Below, piece after piece: positions 1,411-3,095 of a DNA stretch of 64,000 nt; position 1 is the first letter of the stretch, and every line of letters starts with the position of its first letter. The translations under genes were made by a program, and so were the position numbers. Source of the DNA: Alphaproteobacteria bacterium. Lineage in GTDB: Bacteria > Pseudomonadota > Alphaproteobacteria > Reyranellales > Reyranellaceae. Below the pieces are notes generated by a model, which was given only the letters and a program-made list of their open reading frames with translations, ran no database searches and was not told the origin of the DNA. The stretch covers positions 16,264-80,263 of the forward strand of contig RGPT01000001.1 in assembly GCA_010032545.1 (NCBI GenBank), read 5' to 3'.

Positions 1411-1457
1411 GTCGTCCTGAGCGGAGCCGCCCGAAGGGCGGCGCAGTCGAAGGACCT
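1411..1457 (+). repeat. REP-like palindromic repeat, long form, left arm
   Basis: gtcgtcctgagcggagccgcccgaagggcggcgcagtcgaaggacct; inverted copy at 1754-1800 with 2 mismatches in 47 nt; internal hairpin gccgccc-gaa-gggcggc. Confidence 0.9.
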
Positions 1458-1462
1458 GTCTT

Positions 1463-1750
1463 ATGCGGCAGCCCGTCGTCTGTATCCTTGCGAGCGCAAC
1501 GGGTCGGGCTCTATACGTCGGTGTCACGACGGATTTGCCGCGACGTTTGCACGAGCATAGGCTCGGGCGAGTGATCCATACGGCGAAGTACAAGATTGAT
1601 CGTCTGATCTACGTCGAACATTTTGAGACCGCACCCGACGCGATCGCCCGGGAAAAGCAATTGAAGGGTTGGACGCGGGCTAAAAAGGTCGCCCTGATCA
1701 ATCGATCGAACCCGGATTGGCGCGACCTTGCCGGCGAGATCGATGGCTAA
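1463..1750 (+). CDS. Stand-alone GIY-YIG nuclease family protein (about 95 aa)
   Basis: VCILAS...LYVGVTTDLPRRLHEH...AIAREKQLKGWTRAKKVALI...NPDWRDL is the typical short GIY-YIG pattern. Confidence 0.9.
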   Translation: MRQPVVCILASATGRALYVGVTTDLPRRLHEHRLGRVIHTAKYKIDRLIYVEHFETAPDAIAREKQLKGWTRAKKVALINRSNPDWRDLAGEIDG

Positions 1751-1753
1751 GAA

Positions 1754-1800
1754 AGGTCCTTCGACTGCGCCGCCCTGCGGGCGGCTTCGCTCAGGACGAC
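1754..1800 (-). repeat. REP-like palindromic repeat, long form, right arm
   Basis: Reverse complement is gtcgtcctgagcgaagccgcccgcagggcggcgcagtcgaaggacct, matching 1411-1457 at 45/47. Confidence 0.9.
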
Positions 1801-2908: not shown

Positions 2909-2947
2909 AGATTGAAATCTGACAAAAGAGCCCTTTTGGAACGTCCT

Positions 2948-3049
2948 GTCGTCCTGAGCGAAGCGAAGGACCTCGCCGATCGACCAGATACGGACCATCG
3001 ATACCGAGTCCTTGGCTGACGTGAGGTCCTTCGCTTCGCTCAGGACGAC
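2948..3049. repeat. REP-like inverted doublet (short form), no ORF inside
   Basis: gtcgtcctgagcgaagcgaaggacctc (2948-2974) and its perfect reverse complement (3023-3049), 48-nt spacer; same family as 1411/1754. Confidence 0.92.
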
Positions 3050-3095
3050 GAAGTTTCTTCACATGCGATAACCTTGGAAGCTAAAGGGGGAGCAC

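Follow-up and report, generated by a model that had tools for sequence, protein, structure and literature searches.

The closest described relatives of the locus reported here are the Ssn proteins, single-domain GIY-YIG nucleases of ~94 amino acids (aa) grouped in CDD cd10448, whose pairing with a hairpin repeat was published by Chenal et al. (Nat Commun 2025, PMC11893778). In that study, Neisseria meningitidis SsnA binds the hairpin repeat NTS (CGTCATTCCCGCGMAVGCGGGAATCYRG) as single-stranded DNA (ssDNA) only and on a single strand only, with no binding of RNA or double-stranded DNA (dsDNA), and cuts a few nucleotides (nt) upstream; mapping showed that NTS37 is cut and NTS28 only bound, and the substitutions Y6A, Y17A and E64A each kill cutting while binding is retained. 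Knockout of ssnA raised transformation with NTS-bearing DNA ~5-fold in N. meningitidis, and the motif was found nearby in 71% of homologues and on both sides in 42%. We analysed a stretch of 64,000 nt from an alphaproteobacterium of the family Reyranellaceae (assembly GCA_010032545.1, contig RGPT01000001.1, positions 16,264 to 80,263), hereafter the window, in which a small GIY-YIG gene, here called ssn, lies between two inverted hairpin repeats (arms). This locus is very probably an Ssn-SRM unit, in which an Ssn-family nuclease gene is enclosed by a doublet of the cognate CGTC-tagged hairpin repeat. An earlier reading made from the sequence only had suggested that the nuclease may nick or disperse the repeat family; a unit of this sort is not a new kind, since the pairing of a GIY-YIG gene with hairpin repeats, including the comparison to REP-associated tyrosine transposases (RAYTs; REP, repetitive extragenic palindrome) and IS200/IS605, was already in print in 2025 (PMC11893778); the locus is no discovery in itself. 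What it adds is a missed repeat class, a gene-inside-doublet layout, evidence for gain of the whole unit and a natural catalytic-site polymorphism.

The second group of relatives is formed by repeats described without an enzyme. Di Nocera et al. (BMC Genomics 2013, PMC3733652) defined a superfamily of CGTC-tagged REPs, mostly alphaproteobacterial and also present in other phyla, with an unpaired CGTC (or TGTC or CCTC) tag at one palindrome end, an 8-9-bp stem that opens with complementary A-T, a 4-5-nt loop and a 3-nt tail. No associated enzyme was reported for this superfamily, which ‘seems lacking a dedicated transposase’ (PMC3733652).

In the window, the open reading frame (ORF) of ssn starts with its ATG 5 nt past the left arm and ends with its stop codon 3 nt short of the right arm, and by direct comparison the arms (1411-1457 and 1754-1800) are identical as reverse complements at 45 of 47 positions. 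A repeat finder extended the pair to 54 nt (1410-1463 and 1748-1801, 94% complementary). These coordinates, the 95-aa GIY-YIG identity and a GC hairpin within each arm (GCCGCCC-GAA-GGGCGGC) had all been given by the sequence-only reading and were confirmed, as was its remark that the gene uses more AT-ending codons than its neighbours: GC content at third codon positions (GC3) is 0.68 in ssn and 0.87-0.90 in five neighbouring genes. The features of the cassette are as follows.

1385-1409, + strand: outer module GGGGCAATCGCGTATGGATTTTGTC, which abuts the CGTC tag on the outside and contains the region, ~3 nt 5' of the tag, where Ssn is predicted to cut
1410-1457, + strand: left arm, L type, with its CGTC tag at 1410-1413
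1414-1418 (GTCCT) paired with 1451-1455 (AGGAC), + strand: outer stem of the left arm, with GA..GA brackets, supported by covariation
1426-1442, + strand: inner hairpin of the left arm, GCCGCCC-GAA-GGGCGGC
1463-1750, + strand: ssn gene for a 95-aa single-domain GIY-YIG protein, stop codon included, assigned by Pfam and by homology to Neisseria SsnA
1481-1483, + strand: codon 7, TGT (Cys), at the position of the GIY catalytic tyrosine, corresponding to N. meningitidis SsnA Y6
1753-1801, - strand: right arm, L type, an inverted copy of the left arm, with its outward-facing CGTC tag at 1798-1801

The ssn product matches the Pfam GIY-YIG domain (PF01541) over residues 8-75 with an E value of 3.4e-13; this is the only domain matched, and a search of NCBIfam gave no family match. 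To recover the Neisseria protein, we located Neisseria genomes via the NTS motif and searched them with a profile (A1) built from 36 diverse homologues. Full-length ssnA scored 1e-33 to 1e-37 in about a dozen genomes, with YhbQ-type genes at 1e-4 to 1e-7, and the protein recovered (three strong profile matches) has the published SsnA properties, being 94 aa long with Y6, Y17 and E64 and carrying an NTS 2 nt past its stop codon. Over 92 aa the window protein shares 45% identity with it (E 9e-26), and by this homology to a protein matching published SsnA it is a member of the Ssn family. In a pairwise search of N. lactamica and N. mucosa no ssnA was found, and the sole small GIY-YIG gene there is YhbQ-type with no similarity to the window protein. 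The YhbQ/UPF0213 proteins (PDB 1YWL, 1ZG2) are likewise single-domain GIY-YIG proteins of about 90-100 aa, but their similarity to the window protein is distant (PDB E about 1e-3; hhalign 23% identity), they lack the REKQLKGWTRAKK..NPxWxDL signature, and the Neisseria YhbQ-type gene has no flanking NTS.

We then compared 80 homologue loci from Alphaproteobacteria, Acidobacteriota, Nitrospirota, Bacteroidota, Firmicutes, Chloroflexota, Spirochaetota, Verrucomicrobiota, Gemmatimonadota and candidate phyla. Scored against each other, the two gene flanks mostly gave inverted-repeat values far above those of offset controls from the same loci (99th percentile of the controls, 28), and a structural arm definition found 303 arms in the 80 loci compared with 2-7 in shuffled loci. 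An arm lies within 150 nt of the gene in 66 of the 80, so that homologues are indeed flanked by their own repeats. The gene sits inside one tags-outward doublet (‘+ gene -’) at 33 loci and in the opposite layout (‘- gene +’) at 2, which makes gene-inside-doublet the norm in this clade, whereas Neisseria ssnA stands between complete doublets, [+ -] gene [+ -]. At eight loci (L059, L060, L063, L072, L074, L076, L079 and L080) the arms flanking one ssn differ in stem (ATCCT as opposed to ATTCT or ATGTT); either the enzyme tolerates several stems or each end is read differently. These different-stem loci belong to Firmicutes, Bacteroidota and Treponema.

The repeat is also abundant away from the gene. 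A 17-nt terminal motif of the arms occurs 4 times in the window (0.07 expected) and 34 times in the 4.59-Mb assembly, and a profile census of the same assembly counted 57 arms of three nested types. The L type reads CCGTCGTCCTGAGCGGAGC-CGCCCGnAGGGCGGC-GyAGTCGAAGGACC; the M type is the L type with GAAGC replacing the inner hairpin; and the S type reads yTGTCGTCCTGAGCGnAGCGAAGGACC. CCGTC or TGTC stands ahead of the stem in all 34 exact-tag arms. With few exceptions, L and M arms are paired, tags outward, over ~110 bp, and the window genome has 15 gene-less doublets, 14 of them L-M heterodimers, with tags outward in all. Gene-bearing units number two, the window cassette and one on contig C151, where a gene-less L-M doublet (2089-2203) lies 20 nt before the second ssn unit (2224-2608), a small mosaic arm cluster like the clusters of the bacterial interspersed mosaic element (BIME) type described for REPs. 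Across the genus, a relaxed tag pattern occurs 7-498 times per genome in 41 of 41 genomes, compared with 0-1 for a reversed control. The idea that gene-less doublets are internal-deletion derivatives of gene-bearing units was dropped, their spacers scoring 6.9 against the gene termini and 5.4 when shuffled, which is not significant. The exact 28-nt Neisseria NTS motif itself was seen in at least 120 contigs, including Dehalococcoidia, Planctomycetota, Nitrospirota, Desulfobacterota and many Proteobacteria.

Several results weigh against reading the locus as an Ssn-SRM unit. The published SRM pattern, HGTCWYN(0-2)YYVSBRHN(0-5)WNVSBRGN(0-2)RNCYNB, matches no arm type, even with W relaxed, and genome-wide it occurs 21 times compared with 26 times in 4.5 Mb of simulated sequence, as expected by chance; the test is a valid one since the same pattern detects the repeats around Neisseria ssnA. 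We therefore rejected the pattern as a detector for this arm class and did not count its failure against Ssn membership. The window allele is also without the catalytic tyrosine. When arms were folded as ssDNA and compared with shuffles, the L arm was modestly better (z -2.2), and the S and M arms were no better than shuffles with standard DNA parameters, so that the evidence for the hairpin consists of covariation together with assumed G.A pairs.

Covariation was used because the S and M arms fold no better than shuffles. With the GTC tag and the GA...GA brackets as anchors and five stem positions per side left free, 160 of 400 anchor matches in the 80 loci were fully Watson-Crick paired, compared with 20.5 expected and a maximum of 35 in 1000 partner shuffles. 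Nine stems are in use: ATGCT/AGCAT, ATTCT/AGAAT, ATCCT/AGGAT, ATGTT/AACAT, GTCCT/AGGAC, ACCCT/AGGGT, GTCCC/GGGAC and two more. This covariation with nine stems establishes the arms as a distinct cross-phylum hairpin class built of GTC, a 5-nt stem, GA, a G/C-rich mini-hairpin, GA and the complementary stem. By general nucleic-acid chemistry, the paired GA/GA brackets would form tandem sheared G.A pairs, and GCGAAGC a stable mini-hairpin.

The class resembles the CGTC-tagged REPs in its unpaired (C)GTC tag at one palindrome end, in occurring for the most part as inverted dimers, often heterodimers, in a spread over several phyla with a centre in Alphaproteobacteria, in its intergenic position beside gene 3' ends and in that no transposase partner was found. 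It differs in that the stem of the window genome begins with G-T (GTCCT/AGGAC), not A-T as in the REPs and in relatives from other phyla, and in its G.A mismatches and nested inner hairpins; a 9-pair stem is reached only when the tandem G.A pairs are counted, and the L and M arms have extra nested hairpins. With the Ssn/NTS systems, the locus shares a single-domain GIY-YIG protein of ~94 aa, CGTC-tagged hairpins on both sides and genome-wide dispersal of the repeats. The window arms are longer (27-54 nt), with mismatch-containing stems bracketed by GA..GA and unmatched by the SRM pattern; the window gene lies inside one tags-outward doublet and not between complete doublets; the window allele has Cys at the Y6 position; and the insertion polymorphism described below is absent from PMC11893778.

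We examined the orthologous site in 19 congeners, found via orthologues of the upstream gene for a thiamine pyrophosphate (TPP) enzyme. The spacer between this gene and the downstream selenoprotein gene is 489 nt in the window. In 10 of the 19 congeners the site is empty, with 3-24 nt between the two genes; of the other nine, three have gene-less doublets of different sequence, two have degenerate arms, two have a different palindrome and two are rearranged. Among the repeats present at the site in relatives are S-type doublets and a different palindrome, CCCTCCCCC..GGGGGAGGG. A maximum-likelihood tree of the TPP-enzyme gene shows the empty state to be ancestral: empty sites occur in each of its two major clades as well as in the outgroup to the subclade of the window. 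Apart from the window, only one genome, L003, has the cassette here; the two are mutual best matches (93%) and share one subclade, beside a well-supported clade in which all sites are empty. The whole repeat-gene-repeat unit is thus a derived insertion at this site. Its ends are approximate and not nucleotide-exact, the short spacers of the relatives being too diverged.

Other full-length copies occur in at least 8 unrelated contexts, usually directly after a stop codon. The outer module outside the tag, GGGCAATCGCrTATGG..YCC, is also present at L003 (both ends), C151 (right) and L005 (left), whose contexts are unrelated. Genomes of the genus carry between 0 and 10 ssn copies, some of them fragments or interrupted by internal stops, and 6 of 41 congeners have none. 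The stop-bearing or partial copies (L013, L014, L015, L026 and L082) are in decay, which is what a selfish gene present in many copies would be expected to show.

The catalytic site varies within the population. The window protein retains Y18 and E64, but its codon 7 is TGT (Cys) in place of the TAT (Tyr) found in all close relatives and in the C151 paralogue, so that no equivalent of Y6 is present, a defect of this allele and not a mismatch with the family. Public metagenomes carry G at position 1482 of this locus in runs X1 and X3 but A in X4 and X8; the X8 allele comes from the same locus since its contig runs on into the downstream gene. With both alleles found across metagenomes, the Y7C change is a true polymorphism among strains; it is not fixed, and it does not come from faulty assembly. 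The Cys7 allele probably binds but does not cut, given that Y6A in N. meningitidis SsnA loses cleavage and keeps binding, and the intact C151 paralogue could supply activity in trans. Of the sequence-only proposal that the GIY-YIG protein acts on its flanking repeats, the general part stands on the SsnA homology and the cross-phylum association; nicking by the window copy does not, the Cys7 protein being probably binding-only. Between the window gene and the C151 paralogue, 32 of 288 nt differ; 26 codon changes are synonymous and 5 non-synonymous, which marks the two as old copies under purifying selection. A Reyranella soli copy (L017:1716-1991) has His at the GIY tyrosine (VVHILAS), a second independent replacement in the clade.

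If the window protein behaves as SsnA does, it would recognise the arm only as ssDNA, for instance at replication forks or in DNA that arrives or is transferred as single strands, and only on the strand reading 5'-CGTC-stem-GA...GA-stem-3'. Cutting would take place ~3 nt 5' of the tag, at ~1406/1407 on the + strand and ~1804/1805 on the - strand; we infer the ssDNA specificity from SsnA and this position from the N. meningitidis mapping. As both tags face outward, there would be one cut per strand, directly outside the unit. We also propose, tentatively and at slightly under an even chance, that such cleavage initiates the copying of both the unit and the gene-less doublets, which host replication or repair would complete. 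Arm count does follow ssn presence in the genus (rho 0.49, p 0.001), with a median of 109 arms in genomes with an intact gene and 35 in those without, a correlation uncorrected for phylogeny or assembly quality.

Further points count against the dispersal step. GIY-YIG nucleases have no known strand-joining activity, and so host replication or repair would have to finish any copying. Direct repeats of 2-12 nt were sought at the cassette ends and none was found, as the sequence-only reading had said, so there is no target-site duplication. Two near-complete congeners (97% and 99%) have 87 and 69 arms and no ssn, and N. lactamica and N. mucosa likewise carry NTS repeats without ssnA. No empty-site molecules were seen in four metagenomes. 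One contig joint in run X8 (1427->1752) was set aside: with only 20 nt on one side it is most likely a gene-less doublet from elsewhere and not excision evidence.

The strongest rival explanation accepts the same molecular activity and differs in biological role alone. Under it, Ssn would be a domesticated host function, a chromosomal ssDNA ‘restriction’ that trims ssDNA beside the repeats, whether incoming or exposed, and thereby modulates recombination or horizontal transfer, as in N. meningitidis, with the repeats spreading or persisting otherwise and the gene simply lying among them; we regard this as possible, though less than probable. It is the only role with experimental proof, from the knockout of ssnA (PMC11893778), and it would account for arms that persist in genomes without ssn, for purifying selection on the gene and for a cassette common to two species at the same site, as expected from vertical inheritance once in place. 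However, copy numbers of 0-10 per genome with fragments and stop-containing copies, varying contexts, absence from 6 of 41 congeners, atypical GC3 and a catalytic-site polymorphism tolerated in the population do not suit it, and together they resemble a selfish element in decay more than a gene fixed in its host.

The Ssn-SRM unit could alternatively be more than a nuclease gene with its substrate. An autonomous mobile element of the form hairpin-ssn-hairpin, relying on a GIY-YIG ssDNA nuclease and on neither a recombinase nor an HUH enzyme, would be a mechanistically new class, and we consider it unlikely as things stand. The gene-less doublets would then be both non-autonomous relatives and landing pads of the unit: Ssn would cut outside both tags, and host repair, using the ~50-nt arms as homology, would place copies of the gene-bearing unit in gene-less doublets, or copies of doublets at new sites. 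The insertion polymorphism, the multiple contexts, the decaying copies, the 33 to 2 orientation bias and the gene-less doublets found in relatives at the very same site are all compatible with such an element. Chenal et al. likened NTS-ssnA-NTS to an insertion sequence, a RAYT and IS200/IS605, with mobility not demonstrated there (PMC11893778), and the sequence-only reading had also drawn the parallel with REP-flanked RAYT loci.

Like REPIN-RAYT and IS200/IS605 systems (HUH Y1), the locus has a small nuclease gene between hairpin repeats, gene-less inverted doublets, a predicted action on ssDNA hairpins and no target-site duplication. Ssn, in contrast, has a GIY-YIG fold and not an HUH fold, without a covalent intermediate or known joining activity, and ssn is multi-copy and decaying in the genus, while RAYTs are typically single-copy. 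That the unit is not a RAYT was borne out by a search of the window genome for PF01797 (Y1/RAYT), which gave no match and was positive in 6 of 14 control genomes, and Pfam found no transposase domain in the ssn product. Homing endonucleases (I-TevI, T4 Seg) share the GIY-YIG domain and the character of a selfish gene for which self-copying via host repair is possible, but they have a separate DNA-binding domain, cut dsDNA at gene-lacking sites and have no flanking repeats. Classical insertion sequences and miniature inverted-repeat transposable elements share the inverted ends, but their target-site duplication and transposase domain are missing from the window cassette.

Two further explanations concern the arms alone. 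They might be cis-regulatory or structural parts of the ssn transcript (a terminator, an mRNA-stabilising hairpin or an autoregulatory operator) and not mobility substrates, given that they lie 5 nt from the start and 3 nt from the stop, that CGTC-tagged REPs lie mostly just past gene 3' ends and are thought to be transcribed (PMC3733652), and that a Cys7 protein would still bind; yet N. meningitidis SsnA binds neither RNA nor dsDNA (PMC11893778), the same arms occur in the 15 gene-less doublets here and by the hundreds in congeners, a search of Rfam returned sub-threshold chance matches only (a mir-59 model and a snoRNA model) so that no known RNA family fits, and the presence or absence of whole units is left unexplained, all of which makes this quite improbable. 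Chance flanking, in which a generic intergenic REP family happens to surround an unrelated nuclease gene, might draw on the other repeats that the site holds in relatives, but it is effectively refuted by a pairing that recurs across many phyla with lineage-specific stems, by the inverted-repeat scores and orientation bias of the 80 loci, and by the published association (PMC11893778).

The sequence-only account had laid its own proposal open to three observations, namely a repeat that is rare genome-wide, homologues that are unflanked and orthologues that carry the gene without arms, and none of these came true: the terminal motifs and arms counted above are common, flanking arms are usual, and orthologous sites are without the cassette.

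The surroundings of the ssn cassette hold further repeats. A gene-less S-type doublet with 27-nt arms, tags outward and a spacer of ~50 nt lies at 2947-3050, directly after the selenoprotein gene, which is thus bracketed by the ssn cassette and this doublet.

2947-2973, + strand: left arm of the gene-less S-type doublet (GTCGTCCTGAGCGAAGCGAAGGACC)
3024-3050, - strand: right arm of the gene-less S-type doublet

Between the cassette and this doublet, at 1835-2908, are two neighbouring AhpC/TSA-like ORFs with an in-frame TGA between, and the ssn cassette is directly upstream. To the left of the cassette, at 1361-1395, we found a degenerate copy of a second, unrelated palindromic repeat (CCCTCC..GAGGG), which appears as CCCTCCCCCTGAGGGGGAGGG in relatives at the same intergenic site (the L232 and L234 spacers). 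The intergenic spacer around the ssn cassette seems to collect repeats.

The published SRM pattern misses a large cross-phylum repeat class, and surveys that use it undercount Ssn-repeat pairs; by this pattern, the present genus, whose genomes reach ~500 copies, would score as repeat-free. Each lineage-specific pair of enzyme and hairpin is a candidate new specificity for ssDNA-cutting tools, and the Tyr/Cys polymorphism already provides, in nature, two variants of which one would cut and the other is predicted only to bind. The empty sites in congeners are comparative evidence for block gain of the repeat-gene-repeat unit, and comparable evidence was not found in PMC11893778 or the other literature examined. 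Block gain bears on a question standing since 2013, namely what moves the CGTC-tagged REPs; if the hairpin-ssn-hairpin unit is indeed an autonomous mobile element of a new class, this superfamily would get its missing mobilising enzyme.

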